The notes under the pieces are model-generated. The model was not told where the DNA came from. It did no database searches and worked only from the letters and a program-made list of their open reading frames with translations. From Ochotona princeps (lineage: Eukaryota): a stretch of 64,000 nt of DNA. The stretch is taken from contig NC_080843.1 of assembly GCF_030435755.1 (NCBI RefSeq), forward strand, positions 68,862,485 to 68,926,484. Direction: 5' to 3'. The translations under genes were made by a program, and so were the position numbers. Below, piece after piece: positions 8,179 to 54,005 of this stretch; position 1 is the first letter of the stretch; each line of letters begins with the position of its first letter.

Positions 8179-8494
8179 GTATTCCAGGCTTCTGATTATT
8201 GCAACCCATTTTTCCCAACCTGATGACTTGGAACGCTATGCTGTCGTTTCCGGAGCCCACTGAGCCACGTGGTGCTGTCTCCACATCTCCCTGTCCACAT
8301 GGCCAGCCTGCAGCTGCTTGCCCTGGGTGCCTCCAACCTACCTCCTTTCCCCACCACATTTGTCTGTCTCCTGACTTCTCACTTTTTGGAAATCTGGATG
8401 TGCAAGCCCTGTTGACATCAGTACTGCATTCCTGGTTCACATTGACTTTGCTTCTGTCTGACATCTTGGCACTGCTTCCTCTCCCTCTCTTCTC

Positions 8495-8620
8495 GCCCCG
8501 ATCCCCCACCCTGCCTCCCTGCCAGCCTCTGGCCTCATGCCCCCACCCCGCTTCCCTGCCAGCCTCTCGCCTCATGCCCCCAACCCGCCTCCCTCCCAGC
8601 CTCCCGCCTGCTGTGCCTGC
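8495..8620. repeat. GC-rich tandem repeat (about 42 bp x3) in a proline-codon-rich block
   Basis: The sequence ccc(a/c)ccc(t/g)(g/c)c(c/t)tccctgccagcctct(g/c)gcctcatgccccca repeats three times. Confidence 0.65.
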
Positions 8621-11699: not shown

Positions 11700-11935
11700 T
11701 TTGGGAGGCTCAGCTGCTGGTTCACTCCCCGGTAGGCCCACCCTGGGCCGGCTTGGTGGGCCAAAACCAGGAGCCAGGAACTCGTAGGGCTCCTGCGTGG
11801 GTGTCCGTGACTAAGCCCTCACTGCTGAGTCAGCATCAGCATGCAGGAAACCAGCTTGGGAGCAGAGCTGGGATTTGAACTCAGGTACCCTGATTTGGAT
11901 GTTGGTGTCTTAACCACTAAGCTAAACAGCTGCTT
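11700..11935 (-). mobile_element. SINE fragment (C-repeat-related, minus)
   Basis: It reads …ctggttcactccccggtaggcc…ccaggagccaggaactcgtagggctcc…. Confidence 0.5.
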
Positions 11936-12139
11936 CCCACTTGTTACCTCGCCACCCTCAGATTTCTCAGAATAGAACAGATGACAGAACCCTGCGGTGA
12001 GCACCTGAGCCCCAGCTGACTTAAACGCTGTGAATGTGTGCCTTGTTTTGTAGGGTTTTCTGAAGCATTTGGAGGTCATGGTGGAAATCTTGGTACTTCT
12101 CCCTGAATACCTTTTTTTTAAGTAGCTCTTTGAGGGTGT

Positions 12140-13292: not shown

Positions 13293-13296
<4 letters not shown>

Positions 13297-13333
<37 letters not shown>

Positions 13334-13570
13334 CATGCGTGCCCACAGACGTGCTCTCTGCAGGCCATCTCAGCGTGTGTGTGTGTGCGCATGCGTGCCC
13401 ACAGACATGCTGCCTTGCCAGGCCATCTCAGCGTGTGTGTGTGTGCGCATGCGTGCCCACAGATATGCTCTCTGCCAGGCCGTCTCCGTGTCCCTGTGGT
13501 GACAGCGGCAGGAATGGACAGCCTTGCTCTCCGTGTCCCTGTGGTGACAGCGGCAGGAATGGACATCTGC
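13297..13570. repeat. (GT)n microsatellite plus GC-rich minisatellite (3x ~58 bp and 2x ~44 bp units)
   Basis: The sequence gtgtgtgtgtgtgcgcatgcgtgcccacaga(c/t)(a/g)tgct…ccaggccatctcagc repeats three times, then ccgtgtccctgtggtgacagcggcaggaatggaca repeats twice. This explains the artefactual 236-aa minus-strand ORF at 12856-13566. Confidence 0.8.
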
Positions 13571-13599: not shown

Positions 13600-14290
13600 A
13601 GACTGTTGCTTATTTTATATTCAAAATTCTTATACTTTTTTTTTGAGATTTTTTTTTATTATTATTATCATTTTATGATACAGTTCCACAGGCTCCTGGT
13701 ATTTCCCTTATTCCTGCCCCAATTCCCGCCCCCCCAGTTCCTCTATATCATTACTATAGTACAGGTCTTCATACACAGCCATATGTCCATCATGGCGGGT
13801 ATGGACAGTGGCAGAGAGTCCAGCATCCTATTGTCAGGTATAGTGAACAGTTTCATTGTAAGTCCATCTCTGTCTTGAAGTAGAGATGCATACTGCATTG
13901 TATCCTCACATCTGGATATGATAGTCTCCATTTCACAGCTACTGTACATCCCCTTAAATGAAAAGTCATAATACAAAATCAACAATAGAAAGAAAAATAG
14001 AAATTTACAACGCCATGAAGTTAAATAACATGTTACTAGATATGACAGTCTCCATCACACAGCTACTATACATCCCCTTAAATGAAAAGCCACAAAACAA
14101 AGTGAACATCAGGGAGAAAAAAGAAATTAACAATACCATGAAGTTAAATAACATGCTACTAAATGACTGAAGAAATGAAAATCAAGAACCTTCTTGCAGA
14201 AAGTGATGCTACTGTATGATCTATGAGTCAGTGAAGAATTTAATCAGAAGAAAGTATTTTGAAGAGCTGAAACAAACTGATAACATCAAA
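13600..14290. repeat. Unclassified interspersed element with an internal 2x ~125-bp tandem duplication (13915-14165)
   Basis: The segment ttatgatacagttccacaggctcctggtatttccctta… recurs at 28466 and 63035. The two tandem units share …atgacagtctccat(c/t)(a/t)cacagctact(a/g)tacatccccttaaatgaaaag…ccatgaagttaaataacatg(c/t)tacta. Confidence 0.45.
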
Positions 14291-16632
14291 ACCCATGCGA
14301 TATAGTTTCCGCTGATTTTTGTTGGTGAAATGTGTCTCTTCTAGACAACAAATAGATGGGTTTTATTTTTTAATCCAGTCTACTAATCTATGACGTTTGA
14401 TTGAGCTTAAGCCATTTACATTCAGGGTTAATATGTATGGGTGGTACTTTGGTCCTGGCATTTTAGGAATGGGTTGTTCACTGGTTTAGTCCTCTCTTGT
14501 CATTTTACTGGGATGTTCTTCACATTTGCCTTTGGGTTTGGTAGGTGCTATTCCTCTTCTCTGTCAAGAGAACATCTTGAAGTATCATTTGTAGGACTGG
14601 TTTAGAAGAGGCAAATTCTTTTAATTTTTCTTTGCTGTTGAAGAATTTTGTTTCTTTTTCAAAGACAAAAGAAAGCTTTGCTGGGTACGTTATTCTGGGC
14701 CCACAATTTTTTTCTTTTAGAATCTGGAATATGTCACTCTTCTTGCCTGTAGAGTTTCCTGTGAGAGATCTCCTGTGAGTTTAATTGGCATTCCTTTATA
14801 TGTCAATTGATTCTTTTCACGTGCACATTTAAGGATCTTTTCCTTATGTTCAATTGAAGAGAGCTTAATGATCATGTGTCGTGGTGAAGATCGCTTTTGG
14901 TCAAGCCTGTTGGGAGTTCTGTGCCCTTCCTGGATCTTGTTTCCCAATTCTTTCTCTAGAGTAGGGAAAATTTCCCTTATTATTTCATCAAATACATTTG
15001 TAGAAGACAACCCAGTTTCTCTTTCTGAACCTTCTGGGACTCCCATAACTCTTTAATTAGACCTTTTAATAGTGTCTTTCAATTCTTGAAAACTTTTTTT
15101 GCCCTTATCCAGCTCTGCTTCCAGCTTGTTGTTCGCTTTCCTCTGATGAAAGGAAATATTTTCCAATTCTGAGATTCTTTCTTCTGCTTGCTTCATTCTG
15201 TTTTGGAGACTCTCCACTGTACTTTTAATTTGCTCTACTGTGTTCTTAATTTCTGATATATCAGCCTTGATTTGCTTTATTGCTGCTATTGTTTGTGTAA
15301 AATATTCCTTAAATTCTTTGAACTCTTGTATTTGTTTCTCATCGTTGATCAAAGCTTTAAAATTAGTTTTCTGAATTCTGCGTCCCCCATTTTCTCGATG
15401 TTTTCCTCAGTTAACTCTGAGGTTGGCATAGGGTTTTGTTCCTTTTCAGGGGAGTTTTCAGTAATATTCATTGTGTCTCTGTCTCTTCTTTTGCTCTTGG
15501 TCACTGTACTTGTGGTTAGCCGAGTCTTCTCCTTGGGGCAGGTTTCTAAGCTGTGTCACCCACAGGTCTACAGTTAGATTTTACTTACTGCAGTTGGTAC
15601 ATGGTTCTTTGTCTGCAGTCAGTTGTGCCACTCCCTCCAGTGAGTTCCAGGTCTGGGTTCTTAAGTTAGATTTCTACCAAGAACTCTGTAGCCCCAGCTC
15701 CTGGCTCACCACTCTCCACCTCCTGTGATACGGTGCTGAGGCTGCACCATTGTCTGTACAGCCTTTCTCCCACTTCCGGTTGGAGCAGTTCCCAGGATTA
15801 GGGAGAGACCAGGTGTCCTATATAGCTAGGCTGTTGGTGGTGCTGATCTTGTCGGAACCTGTTGGATGTTAGGTCTGGGTGCCACACGGACCCGTACAAT
15901 GCCACAGTCGGTATTATTTTCCTTTGGGACCAGTGCAATCCAAGGAACTCAGTGAGTTCTTGCGAGCTCAGCACATGTGCAGTTCACTGTTGTTCCCTGC
16001 AGTCCTAAAGCTTTTGCTACAGTGTACACAATGGTGCCTGCTATATCACTATTAGAGTTCTTGATCTGCTGGCCATCAGGTCTGAAGGCTACCCAGACCT
16101 GTCTTGGGTGGTACCTGTAGAATGCCACGTTGATGCAGTTCACTGAGTCAGAAATGAGCTCACTCCCAGCTCAGCGCATGCTCAGTCCTTTCCCTTGCCT
16201 TTGCCTCCTTAAGCAAAATGGCGCCCAATTCAGCTCTAGGGGGCTGACTGGGCTGTGAAATCCACCCTGTTCTCACACTGCCCATCTGGGATCTGCTGCT
16301 CTGTCTCCGCTCCTGGTCAAATCAAACGGACCTGCCGGACAGACAGTTCTTTGTCTGGGTTCACCTCCCAAGCTCCTTGTGAAAGTCCCTTCCCACCTGG
16401 TTGCTGGTGGAGTTCAGATCGCTGTTTGCTGAATGCCGCTGGAGTATCAGTCACTGCAACACCACACCATTGTGTCCGCTGCTTTCCTGTGTCTGTCAGT
16501 CTCCAGGTACCCCTCTGCTGTTGTTCTGTCCCTTCCTGTTTCCTGGAATGTGTCCTCTCTGCTTCATCCTGATTAAATGTTTCTCAGTCTGTTTAAACAT
16601 GTCCTTACCCTATTCCGCCATCTTGATTCTCC
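14290..16632 (-). mobile_element. LINE-1 5' portion (5'UTR, disrupted ORF1, start of ORF2) in a CENPJ intron
   Basis: Two minus-strand ORFs encode the L1 ORF1p coiled-coil (…IKNTVEQIKSTVESLQNRMKQAEERISELE… at 15053-15352) and the ORF1p RRM/C-terminal domain (…HMIIKLSSIEHKEKILKCAREKNQLTYKGMPIKLTGDLSQETLQARR at 14717-15046). The ORF2 start (…YHPYILTLNVNGLSSIKRHRLVDWIK…) lies at about 14300-14480. The 5' terminus ggagaatcaagatggcggaatag (reverse complement of 16611-16632) resembles the canonical L1 5' start. Confidence 0.8.
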
Positions 16633-29697: not shown

Positions 29698-29812
29698 TAA
29701 TCCTATTGTATGCATGACATTATTGTATTTTTGCATTTAGAATGGCATAGAGACAAAACACTTTACAAAGTTAACAGGGGTAATGGCATTTTGGTAATTT
29801 CTACCTCCTTAC

Positions 29813-30002
29813 CATGGAGGAAGCGTACAGCTGTTTCCCTTGAAGGCAGTCTATCATCGCCCACAGGGCCTCCATGCTCCACTTGGGACAGTACGGTATT
29901 CTTGTCTTTCCTGAATCCTTCAGGGGAGGTTTGAACCCAGCCAAGAGAACCTTTATGGCTCGGGCTGGATACTGCATAAGATGGAGAGGAATTTGACGCA
30001 GT
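29813..30002 (-). CDS. RNF17: RNF17 exon, SN-like C-terminal part of the last extended Tudor domain
   Basis: Minus-strand acceptor tttcttttgtgacag|ACT and donor CATG|gtaagg. The phase-2 entry continues from exon 31106. Translates to [64 protein letters not shown], which fits the eTudor LP.QAI.C.LA..P...W...A pattern. Confidence 0.75.
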
Positions 30003-30099
30003 CTGTCACAAAAGAAATTTCAGCGTTCAGAATGTTTCAATTAAAATCCCCTTACTGCTTAAACACTCCTAAAACATTTCCAGAAAGCTTCATGTCGGA

Positions 30100-36955: not shown

Positions 36956-39194
36956 TGAAATTGTACTGACTGTAAAATCTGATTTATTAAAACTCTTTCT
37001 ACAACAACAAAAAAAACCCCACAAATGACAGAATAAAAATATATATACTGGACTTCATTAAAGTTTAAACTTTGGAGCTTAAAAGGATATTGTCAAGAAA
37101 TTACAATGACATCCACAGAATAGTAGGAGCTACTTGCAAATCATGGATCTGGTAGGGGTCATGGATCCAAGAAATATCAACAGCTGTTAAACCAAACCAA
37201 ACCAAACCACCCCCCCCACACACACGGGATAAATAACCCCACTAAAATATGCAGTGGATTTGAATAAATATTTTTGCCAAAGAAAATACAGAAACAGCCA
37301 ATAAGTATGTGAAAGGATGCTCCACATTATTAATCCCTACGGAAATGCATGTCAGAGCCGCTTCACATTTGTTACAGGATGGCTAGGAAAAATGTCGGCT
37401 GTCAAACGCTAGCAAGGATGCTGAGGAGGCAACTCCCAGCCTGACTGTGAAAAACCTCTTTTGAAAGCAGCTTCACTGCTTCTTAATGACTTACAAACCG
37501 TGCACACTACTCAAATGTCCATCCATCCCTATGTGCAGAAAAACGTATCATGTATAACATGAAGTTTAATTCATCAATAAAAAGGAATAATGTATGTATG
37601 ATTCCACTTACAGGGAACGTATAGAATAGGCAGAAATTAATTGGTCATAAAGCTGGGAAAGGGAAGAATGGGAGATGACTGTTTCTGACATGAGGTCTGT
37701 TTTAAGGTGGTAAAATGTTCTGGAATTATGTAAGGGATGATGGTTGCAAAAGTCACTAAATAATACCCTAAACTACTGACTTGTGCCGGCACACGCCAGA
37801 TTGGGGCTGGAAGCAGAACCTGCTAAGTTGTAGCTCCCACTGGTGAGTGCCAGGGCAGGGGCTGACCAGGCAACTGCATGTACCGCTAGGTGCACTGCCT
37901 GGTGCAGGTGACAGACCAAACGTCACTCTGCACTGGCTGGCACACACACGGGCAAGTCTGAGGTCACCCCAGGACAGGTTTCTTACGAGATTCCTCAAGT
38001 AGATGGCTGGACTCAGATCCCAGCCACAGGGAAAATCACAATATATGTGTTATGACCTTAGAGTGCATGTATCAGGACTGGGCCTCATCAGTTGCCTATG
38101 GCTGAGCCGTGGACAGCATGCCCGGATAGACAGCTCATCTAGGCCAGCAGAGGCGTCAAGTGCCTGTCAGAGGTTGGGAAGCAGAACAGATCAGAATACT
38201 GTGCTTCACAACATGTTCTTGGGCCTGTGGATGCGTTAAAGTAGACCTGGTCAACCAAGAAACCTTGGAAAGATTTTCCTCAACCCTGGAGCAACAAAAC
38301 TGACAATGTCTCAGAGCTATCAAAACCATTCAAGTACCGCCCTCAGCACTCTTCCCCCCTGTTCCCCCCCCCCCCCCGTTATGGTCTCTAAGGAGGGGAC
38401 CACAGATACGGACGGTCCTTTGATGGCTGTCCTGATATAATTTGACAGCAAGGAGTGGCCCCTCCCCCTGCATCCTTATGGGTATAGGAGGAAAAAAATG
38501 AAAATATTGGTCCAATCCACCTTTCTCTATAAATTGACCTAACCCACCCTAATCAGGCACACATGGGTATGTATCCCTCTTAACTATGTAAACAATATTG
38601 AACATAAAATAAAATTAAACTAAGTTGTACATTGTCTATGGCATTTAAACTTAATAAGTGAAACTCTTACTTGTGAATCTGGTTTCCAAAATACTTGCAT
38701 TGTAACTTACCTCAAAATTTATTTCCCATCTTTCCACCTCGTAGTTTTTATCATAATCTGTTGGCCTCTGAAATCACGTAATACTGCCATTGAGTAAAAC
38801 CATCTTAAACTCTACTACTGTTTTAATGCACATCTATAGTTTATACCCATAAAAACTGGGAGCATGTCCTCATTGGAAATCATCTAGTTATTTCATTTTA
38901 ACACGGAATCCCGAGTAATCTTACTACTTATACTTCAACCATAAGACTTCTCAAAATAATGCTAAGATAACTATTATGCCAATAAGTAATTAAATAAGAA
39001 TGGAAACTTTTACTTTCCCCTTTTAAATGTGAAGAGTAAACTGGAAGAGATTAAGTAACTTTTATAAGATCAGATTAACAGATGGAGAGCACCTTTTACA
39101 ACTCTCACCATGTCTCCGTATTAAAGAAAAAGCTGGTAGTCAAGACTACACATACAAGGTCTGTCTGAGAGAACAAACCAGTTTTCTATTATTG

Positions 39195-41052: not shown

Positions 41053-41083
41053 TTTATTTATTTTTCTTATTTATTTATTTTTC

Positions 41084-41142
<59 letters not shown>

Positions 41143-41153
41143 TCCTTACTGCC
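41053..41153. repeat. (TTTA)n microsatellite
   Basis: About 25 consecutive tttatttattta units. Confidence 0.9.
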
Positions 41154-42360
41154 CAGACTTCAGTCACCACAGCAGCCAGAGGGAATACCAGAGTGGGCTG
41201 TTCACATCTCAGCCTGGTCCCCACTGTCCACTTTCCTGTGCTTGCTCCTTCTGCTCTGGTTCTACCCTGGACACTTCCTCCCACGACCATTTTAGGGCCT
41301 TGGCTCTGTTGCATCTTGCAATGCTGTCTTCTCTGAGGCTGTGCTGGAGGCAGATTCCTCCCTGGCCGCACCGCTATGGTTCTTCCCTGCTTTGTTTTTT
41401 CCCCTCGTACTTAGCACTGATAGACTCTTGAGCTCATGTTTTCCTTTTTTCTGGGCACATCACTAAAACAGAGGCTTCACAAAGGCAGGGCAGACCTTTA
41501 CTGTGTGTCCATGCCAAGAAAAGAGCCCAGCGTGGTCATCTCTCCTCAGCAGTCACAAGCAGGTGTGGGTACGGCTACGGGCACGCACATTCGCAACCGG
41601 GAAACTGAAGAGTCTTTGGAACAATATCAATTTTCCTGCTGACTGTGCTAAGCTGAGCAACACTAAGACAGTACTTTGACTATCTGAACAACTTCAACCT
41701 GTGCCTTGTGTCATGGCCTGCCACGGAGACCGAGAGGCTAGGGAGGGCTCTTAGCACTTCACATATGCCATGTCATAGTTAAGTGGTTGGGGGCTCTCTG
41801 TAGGCCTCAATTCTCCCATCATTACCTTTTAAACCACAAATTTTCCTTACCATTTTACATCTCATACATAGTTATGGTTTAGTCTAATGATCTTGTCCAG
41901 AAACCTCCACTGGGTCCCGCCAATGGTCTCTAACTACCAAATGCCACTCACCATTTGTTCTTGTAAAACTTCATCATATATCAAACTGCTAATATGGTTT
42001 CCTAGAAGCTTCTCTCTGTGCATTTATTTTCCCCCAGTCAGAAAAACTCCATTATGTTTTCTTTAAAGGGATACCTCAATTCACACCATCTCTAAATTGC
42101 TATTATACTCCTTCTCCCAATGTCACTAGACCCAGAGCATGTCAGACTGTAGCTTCAGGGTGACCTTCCTAAGGTCCCATCTTCTCTTACTATAACATAA
42201 GGTCTAGGGGTTGGGAGTCATAGAAGTTTCCGTCTGAGTTACTCTAATCTAACCCACTGCTATAGACACAGCAATAATAGCATCCTGCAAGCTGCTACAT
42301 ATATATTAAAAAATCGTCATAATTTAATACTGTCTTCCGTATCAAAATAAGAGTCTTTCC

Positions 42361-45300
42361 CTTGGGCCTGGGGGGTGTTAAACTTCCAGCAGCCTCTTGC
42401 CTGCTGCTGGGTCTCAGGACGGGGCTTCTCATGCCTGGATCCTAGACGCCAGCCACCGGGTGCACGTGGTGAGCTGTCCCTTGGCCTGCCTGGGCTCCGC
42501 AGGCTGCTCCTTTTGGGATGAGTACACGGAGGGGGGGGGGTCTCCATGGCTGGGCAGGTCTGGGGCCCACCCACAGCCCTCATTGAGTGGTGGATGGGAT
42601 TGGGGAGGGGTGCGACCTTGGGCCTGGGGGTTTAAACTTTCAGAGGCCTCCCGGGCTGTGGGTGGGTCTCAGGATGGGGCATCTCCATGCCCGGATCCCA
42701 GATGCCAGCCACCACGTGCACATGGTGAGCTGTCTCTGGGTGGCCAGAGTGCCACTGGTGCCAGGCCCCGCCTGCTGGCCACCCAGCTGGGAGCTCTGGG
42801 GTTTTGGTTCTTTGAATCACTGCTTAGGTTGCTCCAAGTTGAACCCACTGTGCTTCTGGGATGTGAATCAATCCTAAAGATTCCCAATGACAGTAACTCT
42901 TCCTTTGAAGAACTTGTAATCACTGAACAATGCTGAGCACTGAACACCAGTCCATGCAAAAGCTAAGGCTCAGGGCTTGTCCAGCAGGCTCATATCCTAT
43001 TACCTGACATGATGATGGATCAGCAGACGGGGTCACATTAGGCAGGGCCATGACATTAACTAGCACTTGAGAACCATATCCGGGGGTAGATTCTGTGGGT
43101 GATGTGTGGGCCAAACCCTGTGGAAATTCTAGCCCCTCTGGTTAGCTCAAGAGATGGGGTGGTGATGGACTAAGCTAGGTGTGACCAAGGAGCCTGCCAT
43201 CAATCACAGGTATAGGAACTGACAGCAGTCTAGACTGACTGAGGCAGCAGCACCCAAATGTTAATCCTGAATAGGGGGTGGGGTGGGCTGGGCTGTAACT
43301 TTCACCAGCTCATACAAGGCCAAATGGAAGGCCAGACTTCACTGGGCACTGGCCTAAAACCCAATGGCATGTATGAGAACTGGGTCTGGGAGGGGATCAA
43401 GTGGAGCAACTTGGGAAACTCCCTTTGCGAGTCATAGCTCCCACTGGTGAACATGTGGTCCAGACCTGGGAGTCAGACAAGCTGGGCAAAGTAGCTCCAA
43501 CAGCTGGCCAATGTGTGAATTGGTGATGGAATAGGGTGTACCGGGCAGGACTGAGCAAACCTTAGCCCACAAGCGAAATTAGAGACCAGGATGGAGCACA
43601 GGTCATGCCGAGCTAGGCTCTTGCACCTACTGGTCTGCGTCAGCCAGGAACGCTAAGCCACAGTGTCTAAGGCAGGGGTCGGGACAGGTGAGGGGCTGAG
43701 CCAAGCTGAGTCAGAGCAACCATTGGCAGGCGTGTGATCTACTGCTGGGAACAGGCCCGGTTGGGGAGCTAAGGGGACAGCCCTAGCTGGGTTGAGGTTC
43801 CCACCAAGGGGTGCTTGGGCTGGAATGGGGGCTGCGTTCTGATCAGGAAACAGTTGTAGTCTCCCTTGGCACAAGTGTGGACTGGGAGTGGATACACCGA
43901 GCCGGACCAGACTCCAACACCCTCTGGTGTCCTAGAGGACCAGGGTAGATGTGGGATGGACTAGGCTAGGTCTCAACCCCTACTGAGCCATGTGTGAGCC
44001 GTATGTGGGAATGGACGAGCCATGGCTGGGCTGAGACATCCAACAGCAAGGACCAGTTTGGGTTGAAGGCCAGCCGGGAAAAGCCACTGTTCCTGCTAGG
44101 ACAGGAGGTGAATTGAGTAGGGCTGGCTCATGGACCCCCTGGTATGCGCGAAATCTGGTATTGGGAGAGGTTCTGATGGAGGAGCCTGGGCAACTCCTCT
44201 GGAAGGACATAGTCCCTGCAGGTAAGTGCAAGAAACATGGTAGGAAGCAGTCCAGAACAGGCCATGGAAAGTTACCCACTGGCATACACCTGGCATGGGT
44301 CAGGGGCAGAACAGGCTGAGTCAGTTCACGTCATCCACTGATGAATCTGAGCACCAGAACAGAGTGTGGGTCGGGCCAGGATTGATTGCAACAAAAACCA
44401 GTGCACAATACGGAACGCCAAGGTGAGGTGACCTGTATCGAATGAGACTGCAGCACCCAACAGCACACGTGAGAACTAGGAGGAGAGGGGGCCAAGACAG
44501 CATGGGGAATATGGGGGGGGACCCCTCGCCGGACAGCTACCCCCACTGCAGAGTGTGAGCTGGGATGGGGGCAGACCAGACTAAGCAGGGCTACAACACC
44601 TGTGGGCCTCATGTGGACTAGATCAGGGACAAGCCAGGCTGAGCTGATTATTCCTACTGGTGCAAACAAAATTAGAGTGGGTGAGGGTTGTTTGGGCTTA
44701 GCTGCAGCATCATCTGGCAGAAGCTGGCACTGGGAGCTAATTCTGTCAAGTCAAACCACAGAACTACCTGGAGAGTGCATAATCCGGGAGTGGGAGAGGC
44801 CTGGGAGGGAAATAGTGGGATCCTCCCTCTTGGGTTACCACTCCCATGGGAGGGTATGAAAACTAGGACATGGGCTAGGGTGATCAGACAGAGATACCCA
44901 ACAGCATCTGGGTGGGCTGCATAGTGGAGCTGGTTAGATGGAACTAAGCTTTAATACCCACTGACATGTATGAGAGCCGAATGGGGTGTGGGACAGACTG
45001 GACTAGTCTGCTACACATACTGGCAAACCAAGGTAGGAGGCGGGCCTGGTGGGGGTTATCGTGGGTCGCTCTGACTAGGCTGCAGCTCCCAGTGGGTTAT
45101 GCGAGGGCCGAGTATGTGCTGGGCAGGACAAGGCTAGACTGCAACACCCATTGGTTCTAGTGAAAGTCGGGGCTGAAAACAGAACCAACCCAGCAATTGC
45201 AACCACCAGCTGATCAGGGCAATGGACTGTGCCGAGCCCTGTACTTGCTAGTACATACAAGAATCTGGTCTGGGAATACCTCAGACAAAGTTTTTTTGGG

Positions 45301-45740
45301 GATCTTCCCAACCGAAATGGCAGACTCAGAACCCTAGCCAAGAAAAGACAGTAGACAGAACAAGTCAATCAACCACCTCAGCTATATGTTGGCAGCGAAA
45401 TACTGGGCAAATGGAGACTCTATGATGGACTATGTCAATCAGTGGATTCTTCAAAGACCTCATCGTGCTTGGAGTGGCAAGATTGGCAGCGATTCATAAC
45501 TGGTGAACTATCAAAACCACCTGAGCAAAAACCTCGGACAAGCCCCACATCCGGGACCTGGGGTGGGTGGGAAACTGGGTGGGGCTTCTCCCTCAATATC
45601 CCCCTTTAAACATGAAGGAAACAATATGGAAATAATAGTCTTACCCACTTCCCTATAGCCGTTGAATCTTTTTACCCTAATTAACTATGTAAAGATTTCC
45701 AAAAATATAATAATAAACAAAAAACATTAAAAAAAAAGTC
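42361..45740 (+). repeat. Composite element: 2x ~255-bp tandem units, then about 2.3 kb of degenerate ~60-70-bp minisatellite array, a unique tail, AATAAA and an A-tract
   Basis: The two long units start at 42361 and 42616 (cttgggcctggggg…ttaaactt…cag…cctc…gggtctcagga(c/t)ggggc…). From about 42950 to 45200 a motif recurs dozens of times: CCCA(c/t)TGG… (6-12 nt) …(a/c)TGTGtGA… GGG, for example cccactggtgaacatgtggtcc, caaccattggcaggcgtgtgatctactgctggg and cccctactgagccatgtgtgagccgtatgtggg. The element ends …ccaaaaatataataataaacaaaaaacattaaaaaaaaag at 45738. Confidence 0.6.
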
Positions 45741-45948
45741 TTTCAAGTTACTATAATAGGTTTGGAAGTTCTTAAGTTCAAAATTGCATTTATTTAAAAC
45801 AAGCCTAAGAATCAAACTTTTTTATGTAAATAAATTGTATTCACATAAGAATATATGCAACATTGCTTATCATCAAAAATATCCTTCAATTATGTTTGTT
45901 ATAATATCTTACAGAAAACAATTTAAACTTATTTTAAATACAAATTAC

Positions 45949-46029
45949 CATAACATGAATTTCCACTTCTCTCTTTGAAAGCAATTCCTGAAGAAGTTCT
46001 ATTGAATCAGATTGCCAGACATTTCCCAC
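45949..46029 (-). CDS. RNF17: RNF17 exon, eTudor C-part helix
   Basis: Minus-strand acceptor ttcaattcccaaatag|GTG and donor TATG|gtaatt. It is 81 nt, phase 0 to 0. Translates to [27 protein letters not shown], which aligns with ...[24 protein letters not shown] of exon 30002-29813. Confidence 0.68.

Positions 46030-52420: not shown

Positions 52421-54005
<1,585 letters not shown>

Follow-up and report, generated by a model that had tools for sequence, protein, structure and literature searches.

A 3.4-kb non-coding retroposed element with a decayed internal tandem array in an RNF17 intron of Ochotona princeps

An intron of the RNF17 gene of Ochotona princeps contains a block of 3,378 bp (copy 1) which we take, with a probability of about 0.55, to be an insertion of a multi-copy, non-coding, polyadenylated and L1-mobilised retroposon family of the lagomorph lineage. 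The element is an ordinary kind of mobile DNA, yet unusually long and with a decayed internal array. The analysis covered a window of 64,000 nucleotides (contig NC_080843.1, positions 68,862,485 to 68,926,484 of the forward strand), to which all coordinates refer and within which copies were sought. One extra copy (copy 2) was found there, and it is on this copy that family status is based. The features of both copies are as follows.

37770..37784, plus strand: 5' target-site duplication of copy 2, AAACTACTGACTTGT; the host sequence here is an old L1 3' end
37785..38616, plus strand: copy 2, 5'-truncated and older, 832 bp, comprising the last 2-3 array units and the tail (nhmmer, Smith-Waterman, alignments)
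38617..38628, plus strand: 3' target-site duplication of copy 2, AAACTAAGTTGT, after which the old L1 sequence continues
42352..42359, plus strand: 5' target-site duplication of copy 1, AGTCTTTC, directly preceding the GC jump and module A1
42360..45737, plus strand: copy 1 of the retroposon, 3,378 bp, non-coding (composition, ORF, protein and Rfam searches)
42360..42484, plus strand: 5' module A1, 125 bp, GC-rich, containing CACGTG (blastn, repeat finding, alignment)
42616..42740, plus strand: 5' module A2, second copy of A1, 256 bp downstream of it, 81% identity by blastn
42741..43064, plus strand: unique stretch linking the 5' modules to the array, about 320 bp, without internal or external match
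43065..45177, plus strand: decayed tandem array, 17-21 profile-detectable units (nhmmer profile, held-out test)
45178..45711, plus strand: unique 3' tail, homologous to copy 2, with a G-rich tract at 45553-45584
45712..45717, plus strand: AATAAA of copy 1, the sole AATAAA on the plus strand of the element (read in the sequence)
45729..45737, plus strand: A9 tail of copy 1, starting 11 nt past the AATAAA (read in the sequence)
45737..45744, plus strand: 3' target-site duplication of copy 1, AGTCTTTC (read in the sequence)
45939..46029, minus strand: RNF17 exon, donor GT at 45938-45937 (read in the sequence)

The edges of copy 1 are sharp, with the GC content jumping abruptly at either end. Overall GC is 0.54 in copy 1 and about 0.40 in the flanks, and local values range from 0.52 to 0.66 in the block versus 0.22 to 0.42 outside it. 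The plus strand is skewed towards G over C and A over T (G 30%, A 25%), while the CpG observed/expected ratio of 0.22 equals that of the background. The first letters at the 5' end are CCTTGGGCCTGGGG...; the reverse strand of copy 1 starts with a long pyrimidine tract. The original prediction of an element of ~3.4 kb, in which unique 3' sequence leads to AATAAA and an A-tract, was confirmed by the composition of the block and by the succession of tail, polyA signal and A9.

The target-site duplication of copy 1 is perfect over 8/8 bp and matches at 14/16 positions in an extended form (AAAATAAGAGTCTTTC at 42344-42359 versus AAAAAAAAAGTCTTTC). This flanking direct repeat (AGTCTTTC) was absent from the description in the original prediction. 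The predicted empty site, before insertion, reads ...ATCAAAATAAGAGTCTTTCAAGTTACT.... A duplication of 8 bp implies a bottom-strand nick at GACT/CTTA, one of 16 bp a nick at TTTT/GA. The consensus of the L1 endonuclease is 5'-TTTT/AA on the bottom strand, from which the nick under the 8-bp duplication departs; the 16-bp duplication leaves almost no distinct A-tail, the tail merging with the A-rich start of the duplication. Both the distance between polyA signal and tail and the length of the duplication fall within the ranges for L1-mediated insertion by TPRT (10-30 nt and ~7-20 bp, respectively). The duplication, the A-tail and a suitably spaced polyA signal together bear out the proposed retrotransposed insertion.

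The element is also non-coding. The longest stop-free stretch in copy 1 is 184 aa, and none of its 43 six-frame pieces had a match at E<=1e-3 among 5.8e9 proteins, by which a protein-coding processed pseudogene is ruled out. No Rfam family matched copy 1 at gathering or permissive thresholds, and no MIR or other ancient repeat was found within the element. An exact look-up of its 179-aa ORF in public assemblies gave no record, five 15-24-mers from the element occurred in no paper in a full-text literature search, and other copies gave 0 matches with two metagenome patterns and one genome-contig pattern in collections which probably hold no lagomorph DNA. The negative protein search was dropped as evidence on copy number, on which it is uninformative because the protein database has essentially no lagomorph non-genic ORFs: the C repeat has about 2 million genomic copies, and C-repeat ORFs matched only one protein.

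The original prediction described two direct repeats of ~255 bp at the 5' end. Repetition at a spacing of 256 bp was found, but the repeated part is only the ~125-bp module, 81% identical between A1 and A2, and the remaining ~131 bp of each period are unalignable. Part of the module recurs in inverted orientation (I1) in the spacer between A1 and A2 (42485-42615). The folding stability of the region 42360-42880 exceeds that of shuffles (z = -3.3). We infer that the duplicated 125-bp module is a candidate internal promoter. The 5' region is unlike an active CpG-rich promoter today, because its CpG observed/expected ratio is that of the background.

The units of the array all lie on the same strand, spaced by 57-80 bp or multiples thereof. 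They share the core motif CCCACTGGCA..GTGAGAAC.GGG..TGGGAG; the 35-nt core consensus is CCCACTGGCATACGTGAGAACCGGGTCTGGGAGAG and the mean pairwise core identity is 58%. A profile was trained on seven hand-cut units from 43356-44034 and then iterated. In the held-out stretch 44035-45200 it detected eight further plus-strand units, versus a mean of 0.04 in 100 dinucleotide shuffles, with no minus-strand units in this test and nothing significant elsewhere in the 64 kb. TRF was blind to the array even at a score of 30, and blastn also failed to detect the units. The degenerate 60-70-bp tandem units of the original prediction are thus real by profile, but the array is TRF-negative and measures about 2.1 kb (1.8 kb of it well supported) rather than 2.3 kb. 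The further idea of a secondary-structure or recombination hotspot was not supported: folding of the array is no more stable than that of shuffles (z = -1.1), the 3.4 kb contain only two G-quadruplex motifs, and long inverted repeats are absent. The unique 3' tail of copy 1 amounts to roughly 560 bp.

Copy 2 is located about 4 kb from copy 1 on the same strand. Plain blastn missed it; nhmmer detected it by two collinear matches to copy 1 (E = 5e-5 and 1.4e-4). In Smith-Waterman alignment the two copies scored 23, while shuffles gave 12.2 +/- 1.4, with 18-20 as the highest value among 300. The similarity is distant; it amounts to about 53% along the full MAFFT alignment and to ~70-80% in conserved blocks. 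At its 3' end copy 2 reads AATAAA(38608-38613)-ATT-AAA, the same end point as in copy 1. In the vole orthologue the 3' end of the host L1 is uninterrupted and the target segment of copy 2 is present once, with no insert. The original prediction had made its case depend on additional copies with the same 3' end, and copy 2 is such a copy. Since it also has its own duplication, we regard the element as a member of a multi-copy family and not as a one-off retrocopy; the candidate of a one-off lncRNA or UTR retrocopy was dropped after nhmmer had revealed copy 2. With N copies in a genome of about 2.7 Gb, the remaining ~60 kb would include another one with an estimated probability of ~N x 2.2e-5; 150 retrocopies of a cellular RNA would give about 0.3%, and 10,000 members of a family about 20%. 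A much older second copy 4 kb away implies far more copies than the retrocopies of cellular genes attain, and the genomic copy number of the family should be high.

Exons on the minus strand between 61982 and 29813 match RING finger protein 17 and PF00567 Tudor, which confirms the predicted location in an RNF17 intron. Copy 1 begins about 195 bp past the donor of exon 46029..45939, in the intron that follows. Both copies are antisense to RNF17, because the gene lies on the minus strand and the copies on the plus strand; this orientation is expected for elements with a polyA signal that survive in introns. The vole RNF17 locus is collinear with the window and contains no sequence related to the element. 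The corresponding intron interval in vole measures 3.3 kb, less than the element, and at the site of copy 1 the vole alignment ends 33 bp short of the junction. An RPS14 processed pseudogene with the same hallmarks (AATAAA, A9 and a ~15-bp duplication) is located at 53033-53574, and L1-driven trans-mobilisation has therefore operated at this locus. The window contains ~35 C repeats, accounting for about 20% of the DNA around the element; no SINE lies inside its 3.4 kb.

For the relation of the element to known repeats, tblastn with human ORF1p and ORF2p detected no ORF1 or ORF2 remnants in 42360-45737, and the same search located L1 pieces at 14288-15397 and 52421-53025. Neither blastn nor nhmmer matched copy 1 to any of the ~35 C repeats or to either lagomorph L1 copy of the window. 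It has no UTR homology to the window L1 at 16640-13650. The alignment is confined to the terminal ~50 A-rich nt and is not significant; 84 of 1000 shuffles reached the score of this resemblance between the 3' ends. LTR features were not found: no repeat is common to both ends, the termini read CC...A(n) instead of TG...CA, and the duplication, at least 8 bp long, is above the 4-6 bp of LTR elements. Nor does the array qualify as a satellite or minisatellite, being TRF-negative and sitting between unique parts inside a duplication-flanked unit. The original remark that the element could be matched to neither L1, C repeat nor LTR structure held for the L1 and SINE copies of the window, and L1 homology was rejected on these L1 copies and the ORF queries.

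Both copies might nevertheless be 5'-truncated members of an autonomous lagomorph L1 subfamily, the 3'UTR of which has grown to at least 3.4 kb by tandem expansion and which possibly stands in Repbase as a fragment, e.g. L1B_OC or L1C_OC. Truncation at the 5' end, an A-rich end and duplications of 8-16 bp are L1's own behaviour, two copies in 64 kb would be an L1-like abundance, and the window L1 bears internal tandem repeats in its 3'UTR. A G-rich tract is a conserved feature of L1 3'UTRs, and that of copy 1 lies about 150 nt ahead of the polyA site. Rabbit L1 3'UTRs are unusually long (1.2-1.58 kb), and the Repbase entries L1B_OC and L1C_OC are 'fragmented and shorter than normal' (PMC8346653). 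We consider such an origin possible but doubtful, as 3,378 bp show no trace of ORF1 or ORF2 by tblastn, the two L1 copies of the window are dissimilar in 5'UTR, 3'UTR and 3' terminus, and the composition (G 30%, A 25%, GC 54%) contrasts with the A-rich sense strand of L1. Moreover, the 3'UTRs of the described rabbit L1 families reach at most 1.58 kb.

Less probably, a single cellular Pol II transcript (a lncRNA or a very long 3'UTR) with an ancient array, outside any transposon family, gave rise to the two copies as separate processed retrocopies. The hallmarks all match those of the RPS14 pseudogene, coding capacity is absent, and an old, non-homogenised array (58% core identity) fits a long-lived single-copy locus. 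Two retrocopies of one RNA within 8 kb are, by our estimate, very unlikely unless thousands exist, and there is no Rfam family match. The copies also differ greatly in age or sequence, and the source has therefore remained capable of retroposition through tens of millions of years. An orphan L1 3' transduction, in which read-through into downstream DNA was followed by 5' truncation removing all L1, would explain why duplication and A-tail are present and L1 sequence is absent. It appears very improbable in view of the same 3' end in copy 2, which has a very different age, and of 3.4 kb free of SINEs although C repeats form ~20% of the surroundings. We find it hardly credible that no retroposition took place and that a native GC-rich intronic minisatellite lies beside a chance A-tract or the A-tract of an adjacent element. 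A degenerate array for which a profile is needed would suit such an origin, but an exact 8-bp repeat stands precisely at both composition boundaries (estimated chance about 1.5e-5 per placement, or about 6e-3 with 20 positions of slack at each end), the polyA signal is 11 nt ahead of the A-run, and the homologous copy elsewhere bears its own duplication. The vole locus, with no related sequence and an intron interval (3.3 kb) shorter than the element, also argues against it.

If the element belongs to an L1-mobilised retroposon family, as we prefer, its Pol II transcript would carry a GC-rich 5' region with the duplicated 125-bp module and an array, roughly 2 kb long and composed of ~65-bp units, that had aged and decayed before copy 1 arose, and would close with the unique tail of roughly 560 bp. 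It would end 11 nt past the only AATAAA of the element and be polyadenylated. L1 ORF2p would then nick an A/T-rich intronic target and prime cDNA synthesis on the A-tail, and second-strand cleavage a few bases away would generate the target-site duplication of 8-16 bp. Lacking coding capacity, the element would probably be dependent on L1, whose endonuclease and reverse transcriptase must copy it in trans (TPRT). A bolder version, put forward tentatively, is that of an undescribed lagomorph family of ~3.4 kb, dependent on L1 and active for tens of millions of years, which with its own tandem-module promoter and ~65-bp array might be an independent functional analogue of SVA and LAVA.

Like the hominoid SVA, LAVA, PVA and FVA elements, the element is of kilobase scale, non-coding and non-autonomous, and combines tandem repeats in its interior with a unique 3' domain bearing AATAAA and A-tail, and with L1-type duplications. 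Further common traits are truncated 5' ends and a bias towards the antisense orientation within introns. The sequences are unrelated, and the element has neither a (CCCTCT)n head nor a SINE-like (Alu-like) domain, nor similarity to the C repeats of the window. Its units of about 65 bp are invisible to TRF with ~58% core identity, in contrast to the homogenised 35-50-bp VNTRs of SVA. An analogy to a VNTR of SVA type, as originally drawn, does not fit an array so old and non-homogenised. The term 'composite', in the SVA sense of borrowed modules, found no support either, none of the modules having a match among the repeats of the window. The 3' domain, which in SVA-type elements derives from another known element (SINE-R/HERV-K, L1 or a gene fragment), matched neither the L1 and SINE copies of the window nor any protein. 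The SVA class is treated as hominoid-specific (PMC4432496, PMC7353768), and our literature search found no SVA-like family of rabbit.

With 5'-truncated L1 copies and L1 3'UTR fragments (rabbit L1_Oc) the element shares the insertion mechanism, its hallmarks and a G-rich tract upstream of the polyA site, and the 3'UTRs of L1_Oc are likewise long with internal repeats. In contrast to these fragments, it has no ORF2 and no similarity to the UTRs of the window L1, is GC- and purine-rich instead of A-rich, and is longer than any described rabbit L1 3'UTR. A YY1-type box, AAGATGGCGGAATAGG, belongs to the rabbit L1 in the window; none was noticed in the element on reading by eye. Processed pseudogenes such as that of RPS14, made by L1 in trans, also combine AATAAA, a short A-run and a duplication of 8-16 bp, but the element has no coding sequence or identifiable parent. 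The head-to-tail, GC-rich module at the extreme 5' end of the retroposed unit recalls the monomer promoters of rodent L1 5'UTRs, from which the element differs in having only two modules, alike over 125 of each 256 bp, with a candidate promoter role.

Should the element turn out to be an already catalogued L1 3' end, the finding would be routine annotation. RNF17 is a germline gene of the piRNA pathway, and an antisense insertion ~195 bp from one of its exons may have effects on exonisation or splicing. L1 hijackers of the SVA/LAVA type have been held to be a hominoid speciality. An independent lagomorph family of similar overall layout, if true, would mean that this lifestyle evolves repeatedly, and would offer another system in which to study which properties suit an RNA as a substrate for L1.

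The element studied here, copy 1, lies in the RNF17 gene, as originally predicted: minus-strand exons at 61982-29813 match RING finger protein 17 and the Tudor family PF00567, and the 36-kb RNF17 locus of the vole is collinear with the window. Closest to copy 1 is exon 46029..45939 (minus strand); copy 1 starts approximately 195 bp into the next intron, antisense to the gene. No sequence related to copy 1 was found in the 36-kb vole locus, and the vole alignment ends 33 bp before the copy 1 junction, which leaves copy 1 with no formal empty site in the vole. Read on the minus strand (45700-45745), that is in the sense of RNF17, copy 1 opens with T9AATGT6GTTTATTATTATATTTTTGG, a long run of pyrimidines, and AG dinucleotides come next; this is a possible candidate for a cryptic 3' splice site. 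A 1-kb metagenome contig (L002; ENA ERZ27256642, contig k141_1223077) carries an RNF17 exon with 88.7% identity to 29808-30019; it is mammalian, non-lagomorph host DNA within the metagenome assembly.

The boundaries of copy 1 are sharp. At its start, 42360, GC content goes up from about 0.42 to 0.66, and beyond 45740 it drops from about 0.45 to 0.22; the plus strand of copy 1 has more G than C and more A than T. AATAAA occurs once on this strand (45712-45717), and an A9 run (45729-45737) is found 11 nt past it, so that the predicted polyadenylation signal and oligo-A tract are indeed present. The octamer AGTCTTTC, which the first reading does not mention, abuts the first base (42352-42359) and recurs directly after the A-run (45737-45744), the last A of the run being common to both. 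When this duplication is extended leftwards, 14 of 16 positions are identical. The flanking pair indicates that the 5' end and the A-tract belong to one inserted unit of 3,378 bp (42360-45737), which answers the concern that the A-tract might be part of an adjacent element. Copy 1 is a genuine retroposed element, with clear boundaries and no coding function. The longest stop-free stretch is at most 184 aa, and Rfam yielded no hit at gathering or permissive thresholds. Forty-three six-frame pieces, searched as one joined query against 5.8 billion proteins, gave no match at E<=1e-3, in a collection almost devoid of lagomorph non-genic ORFs where the C repeat itself matched one protein only. This sole match to the translated C repeat, P0075 (Ochotona princeps GRIPAP1 isoform X2), appears to be an annotated isoform with an exonised C-repeat SINE.

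Two direct repeats of about 255 bp had been proposed for the 5' end. The repetition at 256-bp spacing stands, but only 125 bp of the period are alike (42360-42484 and 42616-42740, 81% identical); outside the module the two periods do not align. Part of the module recurs in inverted form in the spacer, and the module region folds more stably than shuffled sequences (z = -3.3). The array that follows was not detected in copy 1 by Tandem Repeats Finder, even at score 30, and blastn revealed no self-similarity within copy 1 except for the 5' module. A profile of seven hand-cut units (43356-44034) found eight more plus-strand units in the held-out stretch 44035-45200, compared with a mean of 0.04 matches in 100 dinucleotide shuffles, and thus the degenerate tandem units are real. 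There were no profile matches on the opposite strand and no significant ones in the rest of the 64-kb window. Iteration gave 17-21 units within 43065-45177, spaced by 57-80 bp or multiples thereof. Their core consensus, CCCACTGGCATACGTGAGAACCGGGTCTGGGAGAG, agrees with the motif read initially. Mean identity among the cores is only 58%, indicating that the array was already old when copy 1 arose; with both the duplication and the A-run intact, the units probably diverged long before the insertion. The results lend no support to the suggestion that the array is a hotspot of secondary structure or recombination: array folding is close to that of shuffles (z = -1.1), copy 1 has two G-quadruplex motifs in its 3.4 kb and lacks long inverted repeats, and the array units are not homogenised.

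A second member of the family, copy 2 (37785-38616, plus strand), was revealed by nhmmer with the whole of copy 1 as query. In the 128 kb searched, two matches on the same strand and in collinear order (E = 5e-5 and 1.4e-4) relate 45123-45712 to 37814-38612. The stringent Smith-Waterman score is 23, versus 12.2 +/- 1.4 in dinucleotide shuffles and a control maximum of 18-20 (three kinds of control, 300 trials each). Conservation is seen in the blocks GA(G/A)CTATCAAAACCA, GGAAA.AA.ATG.AAATA.T.GTC..A.CCAC and CCCT..TTAACTATGTAAA, and both copies end in AATAAA...ATT followed by A's. The 5' part of copy 2 contains two or three array-type units, e.g. CCCACTGGTGAGTGCCAGGGCAGGGG, and its flanks are AAACTACTGACTTGT and AAACTAAGTTGT. 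Copy 2 sits in an old L1, within its 3' end, which resembles that of L1MA; this L1 has weak collinear ORF2 matches (37081-37496). This fragment (37081-37784 and 38629-~38700, plus strand) has an orthologue in the prairie vole RNF17 locus (L001, 29560-29810, minus strand) and therefore predates the lagomorph-vole split. The vole orthologue of the L1 3' end lacks the 832-bp insert; additional vole DNA near or just downstream of the L1 end consists of rodent B1-type SINEs. Aligned alone with the vole, the right flank of copy 2 does not reach significance (190 of 500 shuffles), but it is collinear and at the expected place. Its own duplication, the 5' truncation and the vole site without the insert identify copy 2 as an independent, older insertion of the same family, and so the expected further copies with a common 3' end and their own duplications are represented by one. 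Copy 2 would have inserted in the lagomorph lineage, after the split from rodents. Pattern scans of metagenome and genome-contig collections, which probably contain no lagomorph DNA, yielded no other copy.

The window, which is lagomorph DNA, also contains the following features, of which the two L1 copies served for comparison:
16640-13650, minus strand: fairly young, internally deleted lagomorph L1 with 5'UTR, ORF1 (15397-14538), ORF2 start (14461-14288), 3'UTR and polyA tail (near 13650)
52421-54000: older L1 fragment, ORF2 C-terminal part and 3'UTR
53033-53574, plus strand: RPS14 (uS11) processed pseudogene with an intact 149-codon ORF (53070-53519)
13295-13486: (GT)16, then 2.9 copies of a 58-bp unit, beside the L1 polyA end
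8491-8609: 3.2 copies of a C-rich 37-bp unit
41053-41143: (TTTA)22 microsatellite, about 1.2 kb upstream of copy 1

The L1 at 16640-13650 is fairly young and has lost most of ORF2 by internal deletion; its 5' end carries AAGATGGCGGAATAGG, resembling the YY1 box of human L1, and its 3'UTR has internal repeats of about 130 bp. About 35 SINE copies, which we take to be C repeats, make up about 20% of the sequence. At 11857-11953 (minus strand), ARAGORN called a tRNA-like pseudogene with an odd anticodon loop; with 73% identity over 70 nt to the MIR consensus, it is probably what remains of an old SINE rather than a tRNA gene.

Non-LTR retrotransposition by L1 leaves a duplication, an A-tail and often a 5' truncation. 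A non-coding polyadenylated RNA would have been the template, reverse-transcribed by L1 ORF2p at a nicked target, and these three hallmarks would result from that reaction. The RPS14 pseudogene shares AATAAA, A9 and duplication with copy 1. Its ORF matches 40S ribosomal protein S14 (E = 2e-86), and it has a TOP-type 5' start (CTCTTTCC), AATAAA at 53547-53552, A9 at 53566-53574 and a duplication of about 15 bp (AAGAAGCTGTGCTAT and AAGAAATTGTGCTAT). It sits in the ORF2 C-terminal part of the old L1, which resumes afterwards. These hallmarks indicate that the L1 machinery acted in trans within the window.

We estimate a probability of roughly 0.55 that copy 1 belongs to a multi-copy, non-coding, L1-mobilised retroposon family of the lagomorph lineage. 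Copy 2, revealed by nhmmer, speaks against copy 1 as an isolated retrocopy of some non-coding cellular RNA. In a genome of about 2.7 Gb, the remaining ~60 kb would contain a further copy with a probability of about N x 2.2e-5: some 0.3% for 150 retrocopies of a cellular RNA, and some 20% for a family with 10,000 members. On these estimates, and given copy 2, a repeat family is far likelier than a gene transcript that was retrocopied more than once. The main rival, that both copies are 5'-truncated members of an L1 subfamily whose 3'UTR is exceptionally long, is disfavoured but retains a modest probability. The base composition of copy 1 argues against it, as does the absence of ORF2 across 3.4 kb and of any likeness to the UTRs of the window's L1 copies. 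The comparison covered the two L1 copies of the window; the subfamily could be another one of the rabbit, perhaps one with a fragmentary Repbase entry such as L1B_OC or L1C_OC. In line with the first reading, which saw no L1, C-repeat or LTR match, copy 1 has no ORF1 or ORF2 remnants, no similarity to either window L1 or to any of the window's C repeats, and no LTR-type terminal repeats; its last ~50 nt faintly resemble the L1 terminus, but 84 of 1000 shuffles score as high, so that the likeness is not significant. In a published survey of rabbit L1 families (PMC8346653), 5'UTRs span 473-1,248 bp and 3'UTRs 1,201-1,581 bp, and no SVA-like family is described.

The proposed analogy with SVA holds in part. 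Like SVA and LAVA, the copy 1 family would be a long non-coding RNA mobilised by L1; unlike them, copy 1 has no hexamer head, SINE-like domain or homogenised VNTR. If copy 1 were a known L1 3' end, the finding would be routine. A common 5' start across the genome, if true, would point to an independent family and be of greater interest.
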